From an uncultured archaeon (lineage in GTDB: Archaea > Asgardarchaeota > Thorarchaeia > Thorarchaeales > Thorarchaeaceae), in contig CAZLEV010000001.1 in the NCBI GenBank assembly GCA_964558645.1, positions 29,568 through 93,567 on the forward strand: a DNA stretch of 64,000 nt, written 5' to 3'. Shown one piece after another: positions 47,236 through 57,704 of the stretch. Each line of letters starts with the position of its first letter. Position 1 is the stretch's first letter. The notes beneath the pieces were generated by a model. The model was given only the letters and a program-made list of their open reading frames with translations, did not search any database and was not told where the DNA came from. The translations under genes and the position numbers were made by a program.

Positions 47236-48657
47236 CTAGGTGATTCCATGCTGATCGCCTCTTATTCGTCTTCTGAGATTGAGTCTGATCTCATCCATCT
47301 TGGATGCCACCCTGCTTTTCTCCGTCCAGAAGCCCTCTATCTCCTCGAAACCGTGCACGTCCCAGTAGAGTGGGCATCCTCCGAAGCAATAGCTGAAGTA
47401 TTCACAAGCCTTGCAACCCTCAGGAGCATAGTCCTTTGCTCTCCAGAATCTGGAAGCCCGATTATACCATACCTTCTCGAACCCGTCGTGAAGAAGGTCT
47501 CCGACCGGTTCGCTGAAGCTGGAGCATGGGAGGAGTCTTCCCTCTGCATCGACTGAGAGAAGACCATCACAACACGCGCAACTCTTTGCTCCCAATCCGT
47601 GAGCAATGGGGTTGAAGACGCAAACAGGTGTGGGAGCATACCAGACGAACTGAACTCCTTTCTTGCTGGCCCTCTTCTTCACTTTTCGCACAATGTCTCC
47701 AATCTCCGTGTACTTGATTTGGAGTTCATCTCTCAGCTTCGCCGCTGTCCCAGTATAGATTACCATATTCATGCTGAAATAGGTCAGGCCCAGCTCATCA
47801 GCGTGGAAGTCTACTAGCTTTTCAAGATTGTCTACATTAGGTCTGCAGATTGTTGTGTTGCAGTGAGTGTAGATGTCGGTTTTCCGAAGGTTCTTGATAC
47901 CCTCTACCGTCTGTTCAAAGGCGCCCGGGATTCCAACGATGTAGTCGTGAGTCTCTGCGTCAGCGCCTTCTATGGATACTTGTGAGCTGTTCAGCCCTGC
48001 CTCAACGAGTCCTGCAACGAACGATTTGTCAGCACAGCGCCGGCCATTCGTTATCAGATTGACACGGAGCCCCTTTCCTCTTCCGTGCTTGATCAGCTCG
48101 AACAGGTCGTTTCTGAGTGTGGGCTCTCCGCCTGTGAAAGAGAGCGATGGAACATGAGCATCATCAGCTATGATGTCTATGACACGTTTGACATCCTCGG
48201 TTGTCATCTCGCCCGATTCTCGGAATGGGGAATATGCATAACAGAACCTGCACTTGTTATTGCAGCGGTAAGTCACGGCTATCTCGCTGAGTACCGGATA
48301 CTTGATTTCGCCAGTTCCGAACGGAACAATCTTTGCTGTACGATAAGTGTAGACATTTTGGTTTCCGCTTACCATATTCTGTAAATCGTCCACAAATGCT
48401 GCCAGGTCATTGAGAACCTGCTGTTTGTCAGCGCCATGATTCTCTGTAAAATAGTTCACAACGCTCTCCGGACCCTCTCCTTCAAGGAGCATCTTGAGCA
48501 TGAGCATCCCTGTCCTGTTCAGATGCATGACCTTGTTGGGCCTCAAGATTAGGAGATTGTCTTCGGGGCGAGAGAAGAAGTAGTCTCTCACCTCTTCCAT
48601 GAATCTTGGTATCCATTTCAGGTCCTCAAGTGTGTACTGGTACTCTGAAACAGGCAT
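47236..48657 (-). CDS. Radical SAM/SPASM maturase with N-terminal PqqD-like RiPP recognition element (RRE)
   Basis: N-terminal LNRTG..ML..L.....V..........QV..DL..FV..L (PqqD-like); CNNKCRFC; FTGGEP; SPASM motif CACC..G..LPC...CKAC....CFGGCP. Confidence 0.9.
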   Translation of the reverse strand: MPVSEYQYTLEDLKWIPRFMEEVRDYFFSRPEDNLLILRPNKVMHLNRTGMLMLKMLLEGEGPESVVNYFTENHGADKQQVLNDLAAFVDDLQNMVSGNQNVYTYRTAKIVPFGTGEIKYPVLSEIAVTYRCNNKCRFCYAYSPFRESGEMTTEDVKRVIDIIADDAHVPSLSFTGGEPTLRNDLFELIKHGRGKGLRVNLITNGRRCADKSFVAGLVEAGLNSSQVSIEGADAETHDYIVGIPGAFEQTVEGIKNLRKTDIYTHCNTTICRPNVDNLEKLVDFHADELGLTYFSMNMVIYTGTAAKLRDELQIKYTEIGDIVRKVKKRASKKGVQFVWYAPTPVCVFNPIAHGLGAKSCACCDGLLSVDAEGRLLPCSSFSEPVGDLLHDGFEKVWYNRASRFWRAKDYAPEGCKACEYFSYCFGGCPLYWDVHGFEEIEGFWTEKSRVASKMDEIRLNLRRRIRGDQHGIT

Positions 48658-48779
48658 CTTGAGCCAGTGATTGATTATGGTGACTTAAGCCTTGGTATCG
48701 TGACTACGGATAGCAAGGACCTGAAACGCTTATCTTTGCTTACGTCAGTTAGAAGACAACGCTTAGGAGAGAGTCAACA

Positions 48780-49175
48780 ATGACCACCGGTGAAATTAAA
48801 CTCCCATATGGTACGATAACTGACAAGAAACTCGAGATGCACTTCAATGCATATGATATCGATTTGCCCGTGATAGCCTCCGGAATTCGTGAGAGGATGG
48901 ATGTTCTCCGAGAACTCGATGTGGCATTTGCAGGATTTGGGACCGAGGTTCCTCAGAACGTTACTCAGCAGAATCCTGCAATCATCAAGGCCTTCTTTGA
49001 ATTCACAGGCACCGCGGGTGATGCGCAAGTCATAATGAAGCGAGTCTATCACATTGTCTGGTGTGGCATGATACAGGAGTTCCCAGATTTGATTGATTGG
49101 GCTCAGGCCAAAGCAGACTTGTCGAATCTGACCTACGCTCAGGCAGAGATCATGAGGGCAAGAAGGAGCGAGTAG
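48780..49175 (+). CDS. Hypothetical 131-aa protein, divergent from the rSAM gene
   Basis: ORF preceded by AGGAGAG; no recognisable motif. Confidence 0.7.
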   Translation: MTTGEIKLPYGTITDKKLEMHFNAYDIDLPVIASGIRERMDVLRELDVAFAGFGTEVPQNVTQQNPAIIKAFFEFTGTAGDAQVIMKRVYHIVWCGMIQEFPDLIDWAQAKADLSNLTYAQAEIMRARRSE

Positions 49176-49306
49176 TGGGGCCGAGACTTCCGATGCCTGA
49201 AATAGAGGTTTCCGGTCTTCTACTCGGACTGCTTCATTGTCACTCAGCACAGGATGAAGGAATTCTTCGGAAGATAGCACAAGAGGTCAATTAGAGCAGA
49301 GAGTAC

Positions 49307-51481
49307 ATGGGAGAGAAACGAATGAAGAGAAGATACGTCGCAGGTCTACTCAGTCTGTTCATAGTCGGGATGATTGCATCCTCCAATACGGCTAGTGGTT
49401 CAGCAGAACTTGCAGCAGATCCGACAATCAACAGCGTCTATGTTGATGTTGTCGTCCTACAGAACGGCAGAATCAATGTGACTTATTTCATCACTTTTAC
49501 CGCAGCGAGTGGTGGGCTTGGTGGATTCGACCTATTCGGGATCCAAGAGAGCAGTGTATATGACTCAAACCGTGCCTATGTAGAATGGGGTGGCTCAAGA
49601 TACTCCCTTATCGTGGATAAGGTTTCTCAAGGCTACAAACTGGATTGGGTGCCCCGTACTCCTGAAGGTGAACAGGTCCTGGTAGTCTTTGGATACTTCA
49701 GCACGAACAGGATAATCGAACAGACCACAGGAGAGTACACTGTTGAAGGGTCCTCGGAACCCGTCACGGGTGACTTCGGTGTTCTCAACTGGGCGCCTGT
49801 GCAGTGGAGTATCGATGTGCTGTATGAGAATGTACGTCTGGTTTATCCGATTGAGATGGATGAGGCGTGGATAGAGTCTGGGGGTGGGATTACTTCCGAA
49901 GGTGCACTATATGCCGGATACGTGGAGGACTACCGACAGGGCATCCTCTCCTCGGGTGAGACCCTTCGGGATTACGATGAGAACAACCTTCTCGCATATC
50001 CTTCAGCCCCAGATACAACTCCCCGCAACTTCAGTGTTAGTCTGGCAGCTGACCCCGCATACGCATATGACAAGTTGCAGGTATTTCAGTACACGAACTG
50101 GTCGTTCTATGCCGACCATGTAGAACCAGGGGCTCTTGGTGTTGTAGGTGATACCTACGTTAACGTGGATGCTGATACCAATTTCGAGTATGAGTTAGTT
50201 GTTTTCAATTTCGGTGATAGCACATTGTCCAATGTAGAAGTCACTCTAGGACTACCTGACAATTTGACTCTGATCTATGGAGCGCTCGAAACATACATTG
50301 GGAATCTTGCGGGTGGCCAGAGCGAATACCTAACCTATACGTTTAGGGCTGATAACATTCCTGACGTACTAACAGTCATCTTTCTTGTGACAGGAGAGAA
50401 CAGTGAGGGTTCTGTGGATGGGACCTTTACAGTCGACGTTTACGTAAGGGAGTACATCCCGCCCCTGATACCACCGGATCTCCTCATAATTGGTATATCA
50501 GGGATTATGGCGCTCGGCATCCTCTATTACGTCTATAAGAAAGTCACATATTCGTACGGGGCCAAGTGGACTGCAGATGAGACCACTTATAGCTATGAGA
50601 GCCCTGAGATTGCAGTTGAGACCTATGGAACCCCTGGGACGGTTGCAGAGCTAGACCCCGTCGAGTCCGCTTTCTTTGTCAACACGAGCAGACAGAAACT
50701 TGTCACGATGATACTCATGTCCTGCGTCAAGAAGGGGGCCGTCCGGGTGATTTCTTCTGAGCCATTGAAGCTCTCGGTGACCGGCGTCAAGTTCGAGGAA
50801 TTGACCTACTACGAGGAGCTATTCCTCAAGGCTATCAAGGACAATGAGTTAGATCCAGAGCTGGTCGATGAGATGATTGATCAACTTGGAGAACGCGTCC
50901 AGAAGAAGTCTTGGGATGCGGATTTCGAGGCAACCAAAAACCGTCATGAAGAGATGGTCGAAGGGGCCTGGGAAGAGCTCGAGGCCAGTCCCACAATCGA
51001 TGGCAGAACTGACTACTACTTCGATAGAAGGTATCATGATTCTTGGGCCTGGTACTGGTTGTATATGCATCCGCGGCATGACACAAGAATCGGTGGTGTC
51101 TTCAGGGATACTGGTGGCTCAATCTCTCCCCCTGATATTCCAGAGTGGTTCAGAGGCGTTGCTGATGCCACCGGGCATGCGATCAGTGGCGCGGGACGAG
51201 TAGTAGGTGATATAGCAACTACGACTGGCCAGATTATGTCAAATGTCACAAGCACTATCGGTGAGGTCATGAATGGCGTTGCTAGCATCATCAGCGAGCC
51301 GCTGAAACCAATCGTTGAGGGTACTAGTCGCTGCGTATCACATGACGCATGCCACTCGGCATGTGTGACTCATGATGCATGCCACTCGGCTTGTCACTCG
51401 GCATGCCACAGTGCTTGCGTGTGTCATAGTGCATGCCATTCTGCCTGCCATTCAGCGTGTGTCAGCGGAGGATTTCGCTAG
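49307..51481 (+). CDS. Single-pass membrane protein (DUF2207-like N and C regions plus an Ig-like insert) with a C-terminal Cys/His CHSA-repeat tail
   Basis: Signal peptide; VDVVVLQNGRINVTY..F; Ig-like FNFG...LSNV.V.L.LP; TM LLIIGISGIMALGILYYVYKK; LDPVESA...KKGAV; tail CVSHDACHSAC...CVSGGFR. Confidence 0.88.
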   Translation: MGEKRMKRRYVAGLLSLFIVGMIASSNTASGSAELAADPTINSVYVDVVVLQNGRINVTYFITFTAASGGLGGFDLFGIQESSVYDSNRAYVEWGGSRYSLIVDKVSQGYKLDWVPRTPEGEQVLVVFGYFSTNRIIEQTTGEYTVEGSSEPVTGDFGVLNWAPVQWSIDVLYENVRLVYPIEMDEAWIESGGGITSEGALYAGYVEDYRQGILSSGETLRDYDENNLLAYPSAPDTTPRNFSVSLAADPAYAYDKLQVFQYTNWSFYADHVEPGALGVVGDTYVNVDADTNFEYELVVFNFGDSTLSNVEVTLGLPDNLTLIYGALETYIGNLAGGQSEYLTYTFRADNIPDVLTVIFLVTGENSEGSVDGTFTVDVYVREYIPPLIPPDLLIIGISGIMALGILYYVYKKVTYSYGAKWTADETTYSYESPEIAVETYGTPGTVAELDPVESAFFVNTSRQKLVTMILMSCVKKGAVRVISSEPLKLSVTGVKFEELTYYEELFLKAIKDNELDPELVDEMIDQLGERVQKKSWDADFEATKNRHEEMVEGAWEELEASPTIDGRTDYYFDRRYHDSWAWYWLYMHPRHDTRIGGVFRDTGGSISPPDIPEWFRGVADATGHAISGAGRVVGDIATTTGQIMSNVTSTIGEVMNGVASIISEPLKPIVEGTSRCVSHDACHSACVTHDACHSACHSACHSACVCHSACHSACHSACVSGGFR
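51332..51478 (+). repeat. Coding Cys/His tetrapeptide repeat, (CHSA)x7 plus 2x CV[ST]HDA
   Basis: 49 aa with 11 Cys and 9 His. The repeat units use varied synonymous codons. Confidence 0.95.
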
Positions 51482-52237
51482 ATGCCCCAGTCAATCATGA
51501 CAATCTTCCATATGAGTGATGTGCACATTGGCGAACAGGGGGTCAAGATTGATGACTTTCTGAGAATCTTGGATGGTGTGGAGAAGAAGTCGAAGGCCAG
51601 GACCGAGCCCCTTCTACTGATCACTGGCGACCTGACCTCTGAGGGTCTCAGGGAGGAGTATGAAGCATTCCATGAGGCTGTTGATGGTGTCGACGTTCCC
51701 ATGATCATTGTGCCGGGGAACCACGACGAGCGGAACTACGGGACAGCTCACTTCGAGGAGCTCTTTGGCGAGCGGTTCACTCGCCATGAAACAGAAGATG
51801 TTGCATTGTTCGCCATTGATAGCTCCGAACCTGATAACGATGCAGGTCACGTTGGCAGGGCGTACTATATGCAGATACGCGACTTCTTCGGTCTAGCGAA
51901 GGGGAAGATCAAGATTCTTGCTCTGCACCATCATCTTCTGCCTGTTCCGCACACCGGTCGAGAACACAACGTGGTGGAGGACGCAGGCGATGTGCTTGGG
52001 ACTCTTCAGGTATCAAAGTGCTCTCTGGTCCTCAACGGTCATCGACATGTGCCGTGGATGTGGCGTCTCAATGAGATGGTTCATTACACTACTGGAACTC
52101 TTCTCTCTCGGAGAATCCGAGGTGCAACCACTCAAGTCTACACACGGATAGACCTAACGAGAAACGATGCCACGTTCAATCTGGTTCAAATAGATGGAGC
52201 TGAGCGTGTTCTGGGGCGAAGCGAGCTCGTTGTCTAG
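51482..52237 (+). CDS. Calcineurin-like metallophosphoesterase (CpdA-like)
   Basis: SDVH, TGDLT, PGNHD, HHH and GHRH motifs. ATG directly follows the upstream TAG. Confidence 0.92.
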   Translation: MPQSIMTIFHMSDVHIGEQGVKIDDFLRILDGVEKKSKARTEPLLLITGDLTSEGLREEYEAFHEAVDGVDVPMIIVPGNHDERNYGTAHFEELFGERFTRHETEDVALFAIDSSEPDNDAGHVGRAYYMQIRDFFGLAKGKIKILALHHHLLPVPHTGREHNVVEDAGDVLGTLQVSKCSLVLNGHRHVPWMWRLNEMVHYTTGTLLSRRIRGATTQVYTRIDLTRNDATFNLVQIDGAERVLGRSELVV

Positions 52238-52273
52238 CCAAGCGAGATTGAATTATATTGTCGCCTGACCTAG

Positions 52274-53257
52274 ATGAAATCTAATATATCTGGAGAACGA
52301 CGCCTCATGATTGTCGAAGTCCTCATCATGTCAACCTACTACGGCATCAAACTCAGACTTGAGTACTTGCCACAGGTTGTGGATTGGGACACCATTCGGC
52401 AGGTTGGAAAGAGAACGCACACAATGGACCCGGTCATGGAACATGGCCCGAGTGAGATTCGGGTATACTATGCCAAGCAGATGGGTTCTGACGGATTATG
52501 GAGGCACTTCGGCATAGCACGGAGAAGGCCCTTTGTTGTAATGGTAGTTGGTGATGAATCGGAAGGCCGAAGCTCCGTCACAGACAAAGCACTATCCGTG
52601 TGTAGCGAAGTGGTCAGTGCTACCGATGGCAAGGCACTCAAATCCATTTCCTCAAGTCGACGGAAGCTACTTGCCCGCAGGATAAACGACCAAACCATCG
52701 ACTATGTGAGGCTTGTCATGTTTGGGGAGGCCGGGTCCGGCAAGAGCTCGCTGTTCTCTATGCTCACCTCGGGAGATATCACTGTTGAATATCGCCCATC
52801 AGTGAGGGCAGTTGCTGCCCCCAATGCAGGCCAGCTTCAAGCGATTCTCGAGAAAAACAAGCCCTATGAGTTGGATGAGTGGTACATGGTTGCGAACAAG
52901 TTGCTGACTCTCTATGACCTTCCAGGATCCACTCACTACAGGAAGCTGTGGACTTCTTATCTTAAGAGAGCCGATGTGGGAATCATTGTCCTGAAGAGCG
53001 ATAAGACTGGAGTGGCCCGTGCAAAAGGGGTCCTTGAATCACAATCTGGAAGCCTTCCAAAGCATGTCATTGCAGTTGCGAACTACCAGGATTTGGAGGA
53101 TGCTGTGCCGCCACTGACAATAGAACGATTCTTGGGCGTTACTACCTACGGCATGGTGGGTACCGATCTAGACCGCATCGAGCAGTTCCGTGACATTGTG
53201 AAGACGGCGTCAGTCTATCAAGTCGACTCTTCTTCTTCAGTGCTTCGCTCTTATTGA
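52274..53257 (+). CDS. Ras/Arf-like small GTPase with a ~130-140-aa N-terminal extension
   Basis: G1 GEAGSGKS, G3 YDLPG, R.LW..YL, G4-like ANYQD. The start may be at 52307 or 52328. Confidence 0.8.
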   Translation: MKSNISGERRLMIVEVLIMSTYYGIKLRLEYLPQVVDWDTIRQVGKRTHTMDPVMEHGPSEIRVYYAKQMGSDGLWRHFGIARRRPFVVMVVGDESEGRSSVTDKALSVCSEVVSATDGKALKSISSSRRKLLARRINDQTIDYVRLVMFGEAGSGKSSLFSMLTSGDITVEYRPSVRAVAAPNAGQLQAILEKNKPYELDEWYMVANKLLTLYDLPGSTHYRKLWTSYLKRADVGIIVLKSDKTGVARAKGVLESQSGSLPKHVIAVANYQDLEDAVPPLTIERFLGVTTYGMVGTDLDRIEQFRDIVKTASVYQVDSSSSVLRSY

Positions 53258-53725: not shown

Positions 53726-54952
53726 GTGGCTATGAACGAGGCTGAAGAGTTTGTCAGGGTCTGTGGGAAAGTGGGGAACTACTCAAAGCGAATCACCGGT
53801 AATAGCATTGTCGACGCATATTTCGGCCCCCAAGAACTGGCACCTGCCTTACAAGATGAGCGTCAGTCCCCTGATGAATTGCTACATGAACTGGGTATTC
53901 TCTTGGATGAATGCAGAAATCGGCTGGCTCCCGAGCTGCGTCGTGAGTACATGCTAGGCGAGATACAATCTATGCAGGTGTTGGTCAGCTGGCTTGCAGG
54001 TAAGAAGATGTCTTACGCGGCCTTGGTGAAAGGACTCTTTGGCATTCAAATGACAGGCTTCTCGGATTCGGATCTCGTTGATGCTACTGGCGTACTACAG
54101 GACCATCTTGCAAAATACCCGGGAAACGACCTCAAGGAGAAGGTGCGACAGTTCACAGAGAAGAGTCAGGTCAGAGGAGAAGAACTCAGGAGTCTTATCA
54201 TGGGCGAGCTACAAGAGAAGACTCGGGAAGTGGGGGAGATGTTCAAGACTCAAGTATTCTCGCAGATTGGAGAAATGGTTTCTGATAATGGAGTCAAATA
54301 CGAAACAACTCAGAATGAGCCTTGGACTGGATACAATTATTATCAGGGCGACTATCGCTCTATCAATTGCTTCAACGTTGATCGTGCATTCATTAGAGAT
54401 AGATTGCTCGGTGTTGTTTACCATGAGTATGAGCACCACGTATCCAATCTCTGGCGCGAGAAGGCATACAAGGAAAGAAATTGGACCGAGTTGAGTATTG
54501 TTCCACTTCACACTGGAAGGTGTGTCATCTCCGAGGGCACAGCTGATACTGCCAGAGATTTCCTAGGGATCAGAGTAGACAGTCCTGGTAAGAAGGCTGT
54601 CGATGTTTTATATGCGCTCAGACGGATGGTCAATATCAATGCAGCAATAATGCTCAATCAAGAACAGCGGTCATTCGATGAAGTGATTGAGTTCGTTCAA
54701 GAAAGAGGACTTTTCTCTCGGGAGACTGCAGAGAAATCACTAAGATTTGTCAAGCGCAAGAGAAACGATGGTCGACCAAACCTGTGGGCGCCGTACGTAT
54801 TCAACTACTCCATAGGCCGAACTCGGTTTGTTTTGCCAGCATTTGAGAGGGCAAGAGCAGAAGGGGAGCTTACAAGATTTTTCCAGACAGTATACCTGAA
54901 TCCTTTCGCGCTGTCAAGCAGAACCTGGCCTGGGGCGTTTGACTGGCTCTGA
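53726..54952 (+). CDS. Zincin-like metallopeptidase (DUF885-like)
   Basis: YHEYEHH (HExxH), downstream ISEGTA, and YVFNYSIG. Confidence 0.65.
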   Translation: MAMNEAEEFVRVCGKVGNYSKRITGNSIVDAYFGPQELAPALQDERQSPDELLHELGILLDECRNRLAPELRREYMLGEIQSMQVLVSWLAGKKMSYAALVKGLFGIQMTGFSDSDLVDATGVLQDHLAKYPGNDLKEKVRQFTEKSQVRGEELRSLIMGELQEKTREVGEMFKTQVFSQIGEMVSDNGVKYETTQNEPWTGYNYYQGDYRSINCFNVDRAFIRDRLLGVVYHEYEHHVSNLWREKAYKERNWTELSIVPLHTGRCVISEGTADTARDFLGIRVDSPGKKAVDVLYALRRMVNINAAIMLNQEQRSFDEVIEFVQERGLFSRETAEKSLRFVKRKRNDGRPNLWAPYVFNYSIGRTRFVLPAFERARAEGELTRFFQTVYLNPFALSSRTWPGAFDWL

Positions 54953-55113: not shown

Positions 55114-56124
55114 TTAGAGATGAATCTCTCCATCTTTCATTATTGTCCTAGAGCGGCCGTCTGCGTAGCCTATCGTCACAGTTGGCTTGTCAACTAGAAA
55201 GTCCTGATGGGTTGCTGAATTATTGCTAACCGTCCCCGGATAATCCATGTTGTTACCGAACGCCACATGGATAGTTTTCCCCACTTTCTCCGATTCTAGG
55301 AATTCCTCAACGATTCTGGCCTTGGGATTAAGCCCGATTGCGAACTCGCCGACATGTTTTGCCATCTTGTCTGTGGCTTGTGTTTCTTCGACAGCTCCTA
55401 GTGCCTTCTTGTCGTCAGATTCCAATTCCTGAACACACCCCTTCTCTACTTCAACACGTATCGGGCTTGTCAGGGGTCCGACTCCACCCACTGCAAGGTC
55501 GCAGACCAGCACGCCATCCATAGAGGTCTCAACCGGGCCAACCAGTACCTCGCCTGTAGGCAGATTCATCCATTTCATCGTTTTCCAGTTGATTGCGGTA
55601 TCGGTGAACCATGTTCTTCCTTTCACACTGAGTGTGAAGTCTGTGCCAGCTGGTGCTGCGACATGGACTGATTCAACATCTTGAAGCAGCGTCAGGAGGT
55701 TTCTTGCCTTCTCCTGCATCTCCGCGTTCTCTTCTCTTGTCAAGGCAAGGGCTCCTTGGGTGAGCATGTCCATTGTGATACCCGGACAGTGCCCTACTCG
55801 CGAATTGCCCTTTCTGGTCTCCAGTTTGATGATCTTGATTCTGAAGGGAGTTTCTTCGGCTGGTCCTCGTAGCAGATTAACGAAGATGTCTGGCTGCGGC
55901 TGGACATTGATCATCTCCATCAAGTGCAGGGGAACATCTCTCCTGACTCCCTCGTCTGTCTCAAGAACAAGTAACCTTGTCCAGAGGTTCAAGTCTAAGG
56001 CTCCGTTGGCAAACGCATCTCCAATCTCTCTTCTGACGTCATCGCATACAATCAGAATCGATTCTCCCCGTCTTGCTTCCAAAACAGACTCTAGCGCATT
56101 GGCTGCAGCTCTTGTTGCATCCAT
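55114..56124 (-). CDS. M29-family (thermophilic) aminopeptidase
   Basis: NLPTGEV, VGEFAIGLNP, ESEK..TIHVAFG and HQD motifs. Likely ATG at 56124. Confidence 0.88.
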   Translation of the reverse strand: MDATRAAANALESVLEARRGESILIVCDDVRREIGDAFANGALDLNLWTRLLVLETDEGVRRDVPLHLMEMINVQPQPDIFVNLLRGPAEETPFRIKIIKLETRKGNSRVGHCPGITMDMLTQGALALTREENAEMQEKARNLLTLLQDVESVHVAAPAGTDFTLSVKGRTWFTDTAINWKTMKWMNLPTGEVLVGPVETSMDGVLVCDLAVGGVGPLTSPIRVEVEKGCVQELESDDKKALGAVEETQATDKMAKHVGEFAIGLNPKARIVEEFLESEKVGKTIHVAFGNNMDYPGTVSNNSATHQDFLVDKPTVTIGYADGRSRTIMKDGEIHL

Positions 56125-56318
56125 CAGGTACACCGCGGAATGCAGCTGCAGACTTCCTTTAGGCTGTTATGGCTGGAAATAATGCTTCCATCTAAGGACC
56201 ACCAAGAAGCAGACTGCTCCAGCGCATCTCATTTCCTCATCCATCCAGCAGCACATTCCACTATCTCAGGCTGAAGAAAAGGATACGGGATGGCTGGAGG
56301 CCACCCCCTGAATGTCTA

Positions 56319-57704
56319 CTAGCCACCTTTTCTCTGAGCCGTGTTGTAGGCTGACTTGAGCTCTCTCTCCATCGAGCTCGGAATAGCACTCTTCCCTTTG
56401 ATCTCGCCCTCTTGTCTTCGTATAAAGACATAGAGCAATGTGATGTATACGATGTCAAAGGTACGCAGGACCAGAGTACTGGGTATCGCTGCGAATACTA
56501 CGAATATGATGGCAAAGAGTAGAGTCATCAACAGGTCACCTGAATACAGCCAACCTATAGCTGCTCCTCCGGCAGCGAATGCGATGAAGAAGATTGCTGC
56601 AAGAACGCCGAAGCCCCAGCGTACGGCCGTTTCCTTGATGATGACGTCAACGAAGTTACGTCGCACGAGGCTGGCACTCCGCTTGATTCCATCCTTCGCT
56701 CCAGTCTGTTCGGCCACCATAGCTGGAATCGTGAAGAAGTTGATGAGGGCCCATATCCAACCTATCACTCCGCCTGCAGCCCTTCCAACGGCAGCACCGC
56801 CTGCTCCGCCAAGCTCTCTACCGAGCCGCTGAAGTATGAATCTCACTATCACGACTATGACGCTCGCGACGCTAAGGGCTGCGATACCGCCGATAACTCC
56901 AAGTGTGCTCTTCACACCGTCACCTATGGTCGGGTCTCTTCCTCTCATGTAGATATAGACCATAGCCGACGACGTCCCATAAGCGAAGTTGTAGAAGAAT
57001 ATAGTCGTGAACAGATAGAGCACAACACCTACACCCACCGGCGTTGCCGTTTCAAGAGTCCACTCCGAAGTACCCATGAGAACATCCATTGGTGTGAACT
57101 GGAAGATGATTGCGCCGAACATCAGGGCCGAGATGAAGGTGAAGAACATTGTTACAAGCGGTGGTACAAACACACCCTTCTCATCGAGACAGACTCGTCC
57201 CGTCAGTTTGATGATCTCGCCAGCTCGCCTCACGCGGTCCTTGTAGACTGTGAACAGAAGGATGGTTATGAACAACGTGAACAGTCCCGGTATCATCACT
57301 GGCCATGCCGCGGTGAGCGCTGCGAAGTTGAAGCCCGATGCCACGAACAGGGCAATCGGGGCAAGCCAGGTGATCACGTTCATGAACACGGCTCCCAGAT
57401 AGATTAGAGTTCCCCCAAGCCGGTTTGCCAATGCCGACGCTCCCACTGCCAATAAGAGACTCAGGATTATGAGGGCCGCGAAGACGCCGCCAATAGTGTA
57501 TACATTTGCGGTCAGGAAATCCGGTAGTCCAGATGTCTGTATTGCATCGAGAATATCCTGACCGTACTGATTCCACAGCTGTAGCAGCGAATAGGTGCCG
57601 TAGGCGATGAAACCGCCGATGACTACAATGATTGCTACAATCGCACCTGTGTGGCTAGGATACTTCTCTTTGTCGTGATAAGATACAATGTCTGCTTTAG
57701 CCAA
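56319..57704 (-). CDS. Polytopic membrane protein (DUF6159/choline-transporter-like fold)
   Basis: About 9-10 TMs; IPAMVAE..GAKDGIKRS..L.RR motif. Confidence 0.65.
   Translation of the reverse strand: MAKADIVSYHDKEKYPSHTGAIVAIIVVIGGFIAYGTYSLLQLWNQYGQDILDAIQTSGLPDFLTANVYTIGGVFAALIILSLLLAVGASALANRLGGTLIYLGAVFMNVITWLAPIALFVASGFNFAALTAAWPVMIPGLFTLFITILLFTVYKDRVRRAGEIIKLTGRVCLDEKGVFVPPLVTMFFTFISALMFGAIIFQFTPMDVLMGTSEWTLETATPVGVGVVLYLFTTIFFYNFAYGTSSAMVYIYMRGRDPTIGDGVKSTLGVIGGIAALSVASVIVVIVRFILQRLGRELGGAGGAAVGRAAGGVIGWIWALINFFTIPAMVAEQTGAKDGIKRSASLVRRNFVDVIIKETAVRWGFGVLAAIFFIAFAAGGAAIGWLYSGDLLMTLLFAIIFVVFAAIPSTLVLRTFDIVYITLLYVFIRRQEGEIKGKSAIPSSMERELKSAYNTAQRKGG

Follow-up and report, generated by a model that had tools for sequence, protein, structure and literature searches.

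An uncultured archaeon of the Thorarchaeaceae encodes, side by side, a 473-amino-acid (aa) radical S-adenosylmethionine (SAM) enzyme and a 724-aa membrane protein that ends in a Cys-His-Ser-Ala repeat, (CHSA)n, and we consider it probable, at roughly 0.7, that the membrane protein is the dedicated substrate of the enzyme and is modified, as a whole protein, at its tail. Both genes lie in a 64,000-nucleotide stretch of contig CAZLEV010000001.1 (GenBank assembly GCA_964558645.1, positions 29,568 to 93,567), which we call the window and from whose first letter the coordinates given without a prefix are counted. Because the gene pair is kept together from Asgard archaea to more than 20 bacterial phyla, the enzyme very probably modifies the tail of the whole protein. 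An earlier first-pass annotation of this DNA had proposed the tail of a full-length membrane protein as the substrate, and co-occurrence in both search directions, selection on the tail and the lack of a short precursor now make it the probable one. The feature is real and widespread, and the enzyme-substrate inference, drawn from comparison of sequences, is well supported. The elements on which the argument turns are the following.

47236-48657, minus strand: radical SAM-SPASM enzyme of 473 aa with a PqqD-like RiPP recognition element (RRE; RiPP, a peptide made on the ribosome and modified after translation), assigned from Pfam matches and invariant columns in orthologues.
49307-51481, plus strand: membrane protein of 724 aa with a DUF2207-like architecture, assigned from its open reading frame (ORF), hydropathy, weak Pfam matches in homologues and fold.
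50621-51013, plus strand: confidently folded core of the cytoplasmic domain of the membrane protein, residues ~439-569, from an AlphaFold2 (AF2) model with a pLDDT (predicted score in the local distance difference test) above 90.
51332-51478, plus strand: 49-residue (CHSA)n tail ending GGFR, the proposed substrate core, from the sequence and its near-invariance across genera.

The co-occurrence of radical SAM orthologues with tail-bearing proteins across genomes, which the first-pass annotation had anticipated, holds whichever of the two genes is taken as the starting point. On the tail side, a degenerate DNA pattern for (CH[S]A)3C was run over a one-genome-per-species collection and matched more than 120 contigs, among which 80 loci were retrieved. 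A membrane-protein homologue of 500-950 aa ending in the repeat is present in 72 of the 80, and an orthologue of the enzyme lies immediately downstream on the same strand in about 52 of those 72, often with overlapping stop and start codons. These downstream orthologues share 37-50% identity with the window's enzyme and align with it from residue 10-20 onward, that is, with the RRE included. The contig ends within 1.2 kb of the tail at 10 further tail loci, and the four genomes that have a tail gene but no enzyme at the locus each carry exactly one enzyme orthologue elsewhere (E <= 1e-164). On the enzyme side, the best 80 relatives in the same collection were taken with 4-kb flanks: a tail ORF lies in the flank of 62, the contig breaks off too early in another 10 (in two of which the first part of the membrane protein gene is still visible), and eight, all from Chloroflexota, have full flanks without a partner, each of their genomes having one tail locus elsewhere. 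The partner is therefore present elsewhere in the genome in all 12 apparent exceptions that were checked, eight on the enzyme side and four on the tail side. Among the Chloroflexota split pairs (L214, L226, L232, L235, L236, L237, L251 and L258), the tail gene is more than 4 kb off and, in the two that were compared, about 4-5 kb away on the same contig. A further split pair, in genome G021 (L053:8770-14342), has about 5.5 kb between the enzyme gene and the gene for u131, a 131-aa protein that accompanies some of the cassettes.

Carriers of the tail span at least 20 bacterial phyla, including Spirochaetota, Chloroflexota, Planctomycetota, Myxococcota, Pseudomonadota, Bacillota, Thermodesulfobacteriota and Omnitrophota, as well as Asgard archaea; most are bacteria, and the idea of an Asgard speciality in the first-pass annotation is not borne out. 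The enzyme search adds Thermoproteota, Nitrososphaerota and Armatimonadota. The pair occurs in three gene orders: divergent in Thorarchaeota, where this arrangement is maintained from locus to locus; with the enzyme gene directly downstream of the tail gene in bacteria; and with the membrane protein gene downstream of the enzyme gene in Thermoproteota and Nitrososphaerota. In 41 relatives of the source genome the two genes are present or absent together. Other Asgard families (G029, G025 and G028) retain the pair and no other neighbour of the window's locus: G029 encodes a 924-aa protein with a CHSA...GGWG tail directly after the enzyme gene, G028 a protein of 591 aa whose C-terminus consists of a run of Gly, then a Cys-Ala repeat, then GGGR, with the enzyme gene directly after it, and G025 a protein of 555 aa that closes with GGGR after a Cys-Ala repeat and lies between a true RRE-radical SAM-SPASM enzyme and a paralogue without CxxxCxxC. 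The two flanking genes in G025 are at L057:2-1231 (minus strand) and L057:4786-6111 (minus strand), and the pseudo-radical-SAM paralogue could act as a partner without catalysis of its own. The clades of a maximum-likelihood tree built from 55 enzymes track tail subtype and not host phylum. One clade (Shimodaira-Hasegawa-like approximate likelihood ratio test, SH-aLRT, 96) unites Thorarchaeota with split-repeat tails of Chloroflexota, Myxococcota, Sumerlaeota and one spirochaete, and another (SH-aLRT 97) holds uniform (CHSA)n-CVSGGxH/R tails and includes Spirochaetota, Myxococcota and Chloroflexota, phyla that are also found in the first. This pattern fits a cassette that has moved and evolved as a unit.

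The tail itself is under extreme purifying selection and is not a product of chance or slippage. The last 49 residues of the 724-aa protein contain 11 Cys and 9 His, and the CHSA-repeat motif has no second occurrence elsewhere in the source genome. Across 17 Thorarchaeota genomes, in which the rest of the membrane protein is 51-95% identical to that of the window, the tail is essentially invariant: all 47 of the 47 tail codons vary in their DNA, 43 of them only synonymously, so that amino-acid identity stands at 97.6% against a third-position identity of 41%. Of the 60 codons that precede the tail, 50 change their amino acid in the same genomes. When 136 distinct tails from all lineages are taken together (947 CxxxC units), 98% have His directly after the Cys, 76% have Ser and 18% Asp at the second position, and 98% have Ala at the third; His and Ala are thus constrained as much as Cys. 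Lokiarchaeal ("Promethearchaeota") homologues have hybrid CHSA-plus-CACA tails, and the two tail types are therefore linked.

The first-pass annotation had noticed no short free precursor nearby, an impression that wider searches bear out. There is no free Cys-periodic short ORF between 44000 and 57000 of the window. Among proteins of 36-118 aa in a search of 5.8 billion proteins, only two tail-like sequences were found, and these are fragments, since their contigs measure just 578-728 bp. When all loci were scanned in six frames, no short Cys-periodic ORF recurred, and the short tail-like ORFs that did turn up lay without exception at the edge of a locus or contig. One candidate within the window, a 33-aa ORF with a single CHSA at 49193-49294 (plus strand) in the gap before the membrane protein gene, was rejected as a chance ORF that is not kept even within the genus: CHSA is absent from every frame of the 16 orthologous Thorarchaeota gaps, several of which measure only 30-57 bp.

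The enzyme has the architecture expected of RRE-dependent radical SAM/SPASM peptide maturases, as judged from its domains and conserved residues. The PqqD family (PF05402) matches residues 37-93 at 31.2 bits (cut-off 23.4), which identifies the RRE; Radical_SAM (PF04055) matches residues 128-283 at 89.7 bits; and SPASM (PF13186) matches residues 363-419 at 21.7 bits (cut-off 21.5), a score that rises to 47.7 bits in the G029 orthologue and 32.7 bits in that of Desulfobulbus alkaliphilus. The PqqD match is fainter in distant orthologues; R30, D33 and N47 of the N-terminal region are invariant in the family. In an alignment of 35 orthologues the CxxxCxxC motif (C132, C136 and C139) is invariant, as are seven further Cys (C346, C360, C378, C415, C418, C424 and C428), the last four of which form the CX2CX5CX3C arrangement C415-x2-C418-x5-C424-x3-C428 that marks a SPASM domain. 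No NCBIfam family reaches its cut-off on the enzyme; the best is AhbD (150 versus 500 bits), with NirJ2, PqqE, ScmE and others close behind, and the families PapB (NF047865, 88.6 versus 340 bits) and StsB (103 versus 625 bits) also fall far below. Sequence matches in the PDB are likewise generic (PqqE at 68 bits, SkfB at 60 bits, and also Tes and SuiB). Hydropathy gives no transmembrane segment for the enzyme or for the other putative enzymes of the locus, which are accordingly predicted to be soluble.

The partner is built quite differently. Hydropathy of the 724-aa protein shows an N-terminal signal or anchor at residues 11-29 and one central transmembrane segment at about residues 384-410 (about 50474-50542), followed by Lys-Lys. 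This topology predicts a tail in the cytoplasm, where a soluble enzyme could reach it, in agreement with the first-pass annotation. The protein has no Pfam or NCBIfam family, nor has its homologue from the cultured Desulfobulbus alkaliphilus DSM 24258, and among 88 database homologues all that bear a name are called "hypothetical protein". Its resemblance to DUF2207 proteins, guessed at in the first-pass annotation, is roughly right: it appears at the level of the fold and in weak Pfam matches of homologues, while the 724-aa protein itself stays below the DUF2207 thresholds, with no match to the Pfam model even at E <= 1. The threshold for the N-domain (PF09972) is reached by a few bacterial homologues only, for example P0047 and P0059 (25.4 and 32.9 bits; cut-off 24.4). 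DUF2207 proteins (PF09972/PF20990) such as Streptococcus mutans SMU.243 have a signal peptide, a large ectodomain, a transmembrane segment and a large intracellular low-complexity C-terminus (PMC10457818), a layout that they share with the window's protein. Ordinary DUF2207 tails, however, are rich in Gly and Ser, lack the Cys-His repeat and have no radical SAM partner, and we found no paper linking DUF2207 with radical SAM enzymes. In one carrier (L110:5915-6214, Candidatus Vecturithrix / Moduliflexota) the CHSA repeat is followed by a Gly/Ser run that ends in Trp; this end resembles the Gly-rich end of an ordinary DUF2207 protein, which suggests that an older low-complexity tail received the Cys-His repeat as an insertion.

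In an AF2 model of the cytoplasmic domain about 130 residues have a pLDDT above 90, and the tail itself is below 50. Compared with clusters of the ESM atlas, this model gives template modelling scores of 0.47-0.68 for DUF2207 and DUF2207_C clusters and 0.39/0.53 for a GPP34 cluster. An exhaustive comparison with PDB representatives by VIA-align ranks GOLPH3 first (3kn1_A, Z 6.6, root mean square deviation 4.3, 155 residues aligned) and Vps74 second (2zih_A, Z 5.7), the next row having Z 3.3; Foldseek also places Vps74 and GOLPH3 at the top, weakly (E 0.3, probability 0.6). A GPP34-like domain that also matches the DUF2207_C clusters thus appears to occupy about 50621-51250 (residues ~448-649) of the membrane protein. 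In eukaryotes GPP34 is a Golgi phosphoinositide-binding fold. The family of the domain as found here is mostly bacterial and is therefore no Asgard-specific eukaryotic signature.

CteB, PapB and NxxcB are RRE-radical SAM-SPASM enzymes that make thioethers on CxxxC-type cores, and small thioether rings that span i to i+3/4 are formed by PapB (C-X3-D) and NxxcB (N-x-x-C). By analogy with thioether-forming enzymes (CrpC/CrpA, QhpD, PapB, NxxcB), we suggest tentatively, at a little short of even odds, that the product here would be a ladder of small intramolecular thioether rings of the ranthionine or sactionine type, joining each Cys sulphur to a carbon of the neighbouring invariant His or Ala. 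The membrane protein would hold its DUF2207-type ectodomain outside the cell and its GPP34/DUF2207_C-like domain and (Ala-Cys-His-Ser)n tail inside, where the soluble enzyme would engage its cytoplasmic end and use SAM-derived 5'-deoxyadenosyl radicals to modify the repeat units one after another. The flexible tail would become a rigid cross-linked rod whose imidazoles may then bind metal; the modified protein would stay whole, and u131 would serve as an optional helper. The covalent modification, its type and its biological role are in this account what we infer.

The likeness to known systems is closest in kind to CrpC of Methanococcus voltae, reported in September 2026 to install ranthionine cross-links on CrpA, a 28.8-kDa Cys-repeat protein (PMC13692751). 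There too an RRE-radical SAM-SPASM enzyme with a seven-Cys SPASM domain is encoded next to a large protein with a C-terminal Cys repeat, and the whole protein, not a short peptide, is the substrate, as we propose here; a small accessory protein, CrpB, improves CrpA processing and is a possible parallel to u131 (PMC13692751). CrpA differs in being soluble and in having a 17-residue repeat with C-X-X-Q/D motifs, whereas the repeat described here is a four-residue A-C-H-S unit in the cytoplasmic tail of a membrane protein of 550-950 aa, and the window's enzyme is not a member of the CrpC family (TIGR04463, "rSAM_vs_C_rich"; 44 versus 525 bits, G000:C1:77322-77849). The ranthipeptide and sactipeptide maturases (CteB/SCIFF, PapB/freyrasin, NxxcB, SkfB and AlbA) and the QhpD/QhpC system share with the present pair the combination of RRE, radical SAM and SPASM domains and the CxxxC-type spacing of the core, and QhpD, which makes thioethers, acts on a protein subunit (PMC13692751). 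Unlike the ranthipeptide and sactipeptide systems, the cassettes studied here have no genes for leader cleavage or export, and the acceptors of known thioether systems (Asp, Glu, Asn, Gln and Thr) contrast with the conserved His and Ala.

A Cys at every fourth residue combined with a radical SAM/SPASM enzyme is also the hallmark of the CXXX-repeat system (target TIGR04117, maturase TIGR04115 and Pfam PF27846, "tSAM_targ_Cxxx_rpt"), which is defined only bioinformatically, by NCBIfam and Pfam models. The TIGR04117 profile has 98 positions and so describes a short protein, whereas the carrier here is a DUF2207-like membrane protein. Its repeat part (positions 61-97) aligns to bacterial tails at 14-17 bits against a cut-off of 50, and it gives no match on the window's tail at E <= 10, which places that tail outside the target family. 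TIGR04115 (cut-off 350 bits) has no match on the window's enzyme at E <= 0.001, its sole match in the genome lying elsewhere at 33.7 bits. PF27846, the newer model, is recorded on about 15 of the 88 homologues and on none of the five closest archaeal ones (P0001-P0005). Because that model bears its name and is recorded on these homologues, curators thus already recognise repeats of this kind as radical SAM targets, on short proteins. Membrane proteins with a Cys-bearing low-complexity C-terminal tail are known from TIGR04222, where the tail is the suspected substrate of a neighbouring RiPP-type enzyme of the MNIO class, oxidative enzymes that depend on multinuclear non-haem iron (PMC12452194). 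That system differs in its oxygen-dependent enzyme class, in a tail predicted to be periplasmic and in a loose association, many TIGR04222 genes having no MNIO neighbour; in the present pair the prediction puts the tail in the cytoplasm, and tail and enzyme are almost completely coupled. No paper was found on the membrane-protein form of the system or containing the repeat string, and to that extent the first-pass annotation was right to call it undescribed; the term is too strong in that PF27846 touches some of the bacterial tails and whole-protein thioether installation is known for CrpC/CrpA (PMC13692751).

Several observations weigh against taking the two proteins as enzyme and substrate. 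Cys, His and Asp or Ser at a four-residue period are classical metal ligands, and the overlapping CX3CH units resemble variant haem-c motifs; with such ligand-type residues at such a period, the conservation of the tail could equally reflect the binding of a metal or cofactor. Known thioether systems give no reason for an invariant His, and the invariance of His and Ala together leaves room for a His or Ala acceptor, for metal binding by the product or for a different chemistry. No characterised family includes the enzyme, whose highest NCBIfam scores (AhbD, NirJ2 and PqqE) are generic, and for one distant relative of it, in G035 (32% identity), no tail partner was found. Within Thorarchaeota a whole 14-kb block, from a RIO kinase gene to a DUF6159 gene, is syntenic, so that local linkage there is weak evidence when taken alone. 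Six genomes of the Thorarchaeota family lack both genes, and in all five of those searched a flanking gene for a helix-turn-helix/Zn-ribbon protein is missing as well, for which reason co-loss within this family adds little. A predicted complex of the enzyme alignment with the last 100 residues of the membrane protein scored 0.00, which is no answer and counts as evidence neither way.

The strongest of the alternatives is that the tail is a metal-, Fe-S- or haem-binding module and that the radical SAM enzyme serves to load or mature its cofactor, for example by attaching or transforming a tetrapyrrole or metal centre. We regard this as unlikely, and it is compatible with cross-linking rather than exclusive of it. 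Its appeal lies in the composition of the repeat, in which Cys, His and Ser/Asp make up a ligand set fixed at 98%, 98% and 94% of unit positions, in the fact that the best curated matches of the enzyme are the tetrapyrrole-modifying SPASM enzymes AhbD and NirJ2, and in the idea, put forward by the authors of the CrpA study, that CrpA might bind metals once modified (PMC13692751). At about 150 versus 500 bits, however, AhbD and NirJ score no better than PqqE and other peptide maturases, and the enzyme bears an RRE, a peptide-binding domain. Known haem-c attachment is extracytoplasmic, whereas the tail is predicted to lie inside, and simple ligation does not explain why Ala is as invariant as the ligand residues. 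A bolder version, which we hold to be improbable, has the enzyme turn the invariant Cys-His(-x-Ala) units not into ordinary Cys-to-Asp/Thr thioethers but into a repeating array of redox or metal-binding cofactors that the protein carries at the inner membrane face; candidates are cross-links between Cys and His, or covalent sites for a tetrapyrrole or metal on the overlapping CX3CH units. If true, a transmembrane receptor-like protein would bear a prosthetic structure of a new kind, made after translation, in Asgard archaea and many anaerobic bacteria.

It is more doubtful still that the tail is a precursor released by cleavage once it has been modified, either like pyrroloquinoline quinone (PQQ) or mycofactocin or as a cyclic peptide signal, with the membrane protein as scaffold or leader. 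In favour of such a route, PqqE and MftC, both SPASM enzymes that depend on an RRE, work on their precursors close to the C-terminus, and the Thorarchaeota neighbourhood supplies an HExxH protein (53726-54952) and an M29 peptidase (55114-56133). Across phyla, however, no peptidase is conserved in the cassette, the carrier is conserved over its full length with both its ecto- and cytoplasmic domains, and the HExxH protein is without a family or PDB match and limited to the syntenic Thorarchaeota block. The releasable cyclic peptide of the first-pass annotation thus finds no support, no protease being conserved in the cassette. That the two genes are mere neighbours without direct functional relation is hardly credible: the synteny of the entire Thorarchaeota neighbourhood would allow it, but these two genes alone have stayed together in at least 20 bacterial phyla and four archaeal groups, under three gene orders, and they co-occur at the genome level in 12 of the 12 separated cases checked.

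Beyond the pair, the layout that the first-pass annotation had given for 47236-53257 was confirmed throughout against the ORF list and the sequence: all five ORFs, the 122-bp gap, the tail, the abutting start of the gene that follows it and the 36-bp gap after that. The remaining elements are as follows.

48658-48779, no strand: divergent intergenic region of 122 bp between the enzyme gene and the run of u131 and membrane protein genes, from the sequence.
48780-49175, plus strand, ATG at 48780: u131, a soluble accessory protein of 131 aa without a family, from tblastn and hidden Markov model (HMM) searches and an AF2 model.
51482-52237, plus strand: metallophosphoesterase, with its ATG at 51482 directly after the TAG of the membrane protein gene; a lineage-specific neighbour (Pfam Metallophos, 50.4 bits).
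52274-53257, plus strand: Arf/Roc-like small GTPase that starts 36 bp after the phosphoesterase gene; a lineage-specific neighbour (Pfam Arf and Roc matches).

The only recurrent extra genes of the cassette are those for u131 and for a membrane protein of about 320 aa. By tblastn and HMM searches, u131 belongs to every Thorarchaeota cassette and to three from bacteria, its gene always lying just upstream of that for the membrane protein; it has no family match, its AF2 model (pLDDT 81.6) has no PDB match better than E 0.02 in Foldseek, and a feature search of the ESM atlas returned nothing usable. The second, an unannotated membrane protein of ~320-340 aa, is encoded directly after the enzyme gene in 36 bacterial loci, half of the bacterial cassettes (e.g., L125:5404-6426 and L268:8056-9045, both on the plus strand); Pfam and NCBIfam give it no family, and a search of the source genome did not find it. 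Of 17 Thorarchaeota loci, 11 have the phosphoesterase gene downstream of that for the membrane protein and four have the GTPase gene; neither occurs in any of the bacterial or other archaeal cassettes. On this distribution the two proteins are not part of the system, and the coupling to signalling that the first-pass annotation had read into them falls away with their confinement to Thorarchaeota. The GTPase has an N-terminal extension of about 140 aa without a family match, and homologues with 37% identity occupy the same position in three other Thorarchaeota genomes.

Further along the window, 53726-54952 (plus strand) encodes a soluble 408-aa protein with an HEYEH (HExxH-type) motif, a conserved neighbour in most Thorarchaeota loci that has no Pfam family and no PDB match and is absent from bacterial cassettes. 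We considered it as a leader peptidase and rejected it, as it has neither Pfam nor PDB support and is confined to the syntenic Thorarchaeota block. An M29 metallopeptidase (55114-56133, minus strand, 72.6 bits) adjoins a 461-aa protein with several transmembrane segments (56319-57704, minus strand) that matches Pfam DUF6159 at 45 bits, together with a match to the GPDPase membrane domain below its cut-off. No RNA dataset is listed for 47236-51481, and the stretch is matched by marine and freshwater sediment metagenome runs, among which the source of the assembly may be included.

If the two proteins are indeed enzyme and substrate, a full-size membrane protein would undergo a widespread post-translational modification in at least 20 bacterial phyla and several archaeal groups, and this modification would be independent of oxygen because radical SAM chemistry is. 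RiPP-type radical chemistry would thereby be extended from small secreted peptides to the cell's own membrane proteins, for which the only experimental precedents that we found are QhpD and the 2026 study of CrpC/CrpA (PMC13692751). The system is amenable to testing, since it offers a short substrate core, a self-contained pair and at least one cultured carrier, Desulfobulbus alkaliphilus DSM 24258. That the His and Ala beside each Cys are strictly invariant suggests a chemistry or metal binding unlike that of known thioether peptides, and the pair, if our reading is true, would provide the first functional handle on a branch of the large and unexplained DUF2207 superfamily.

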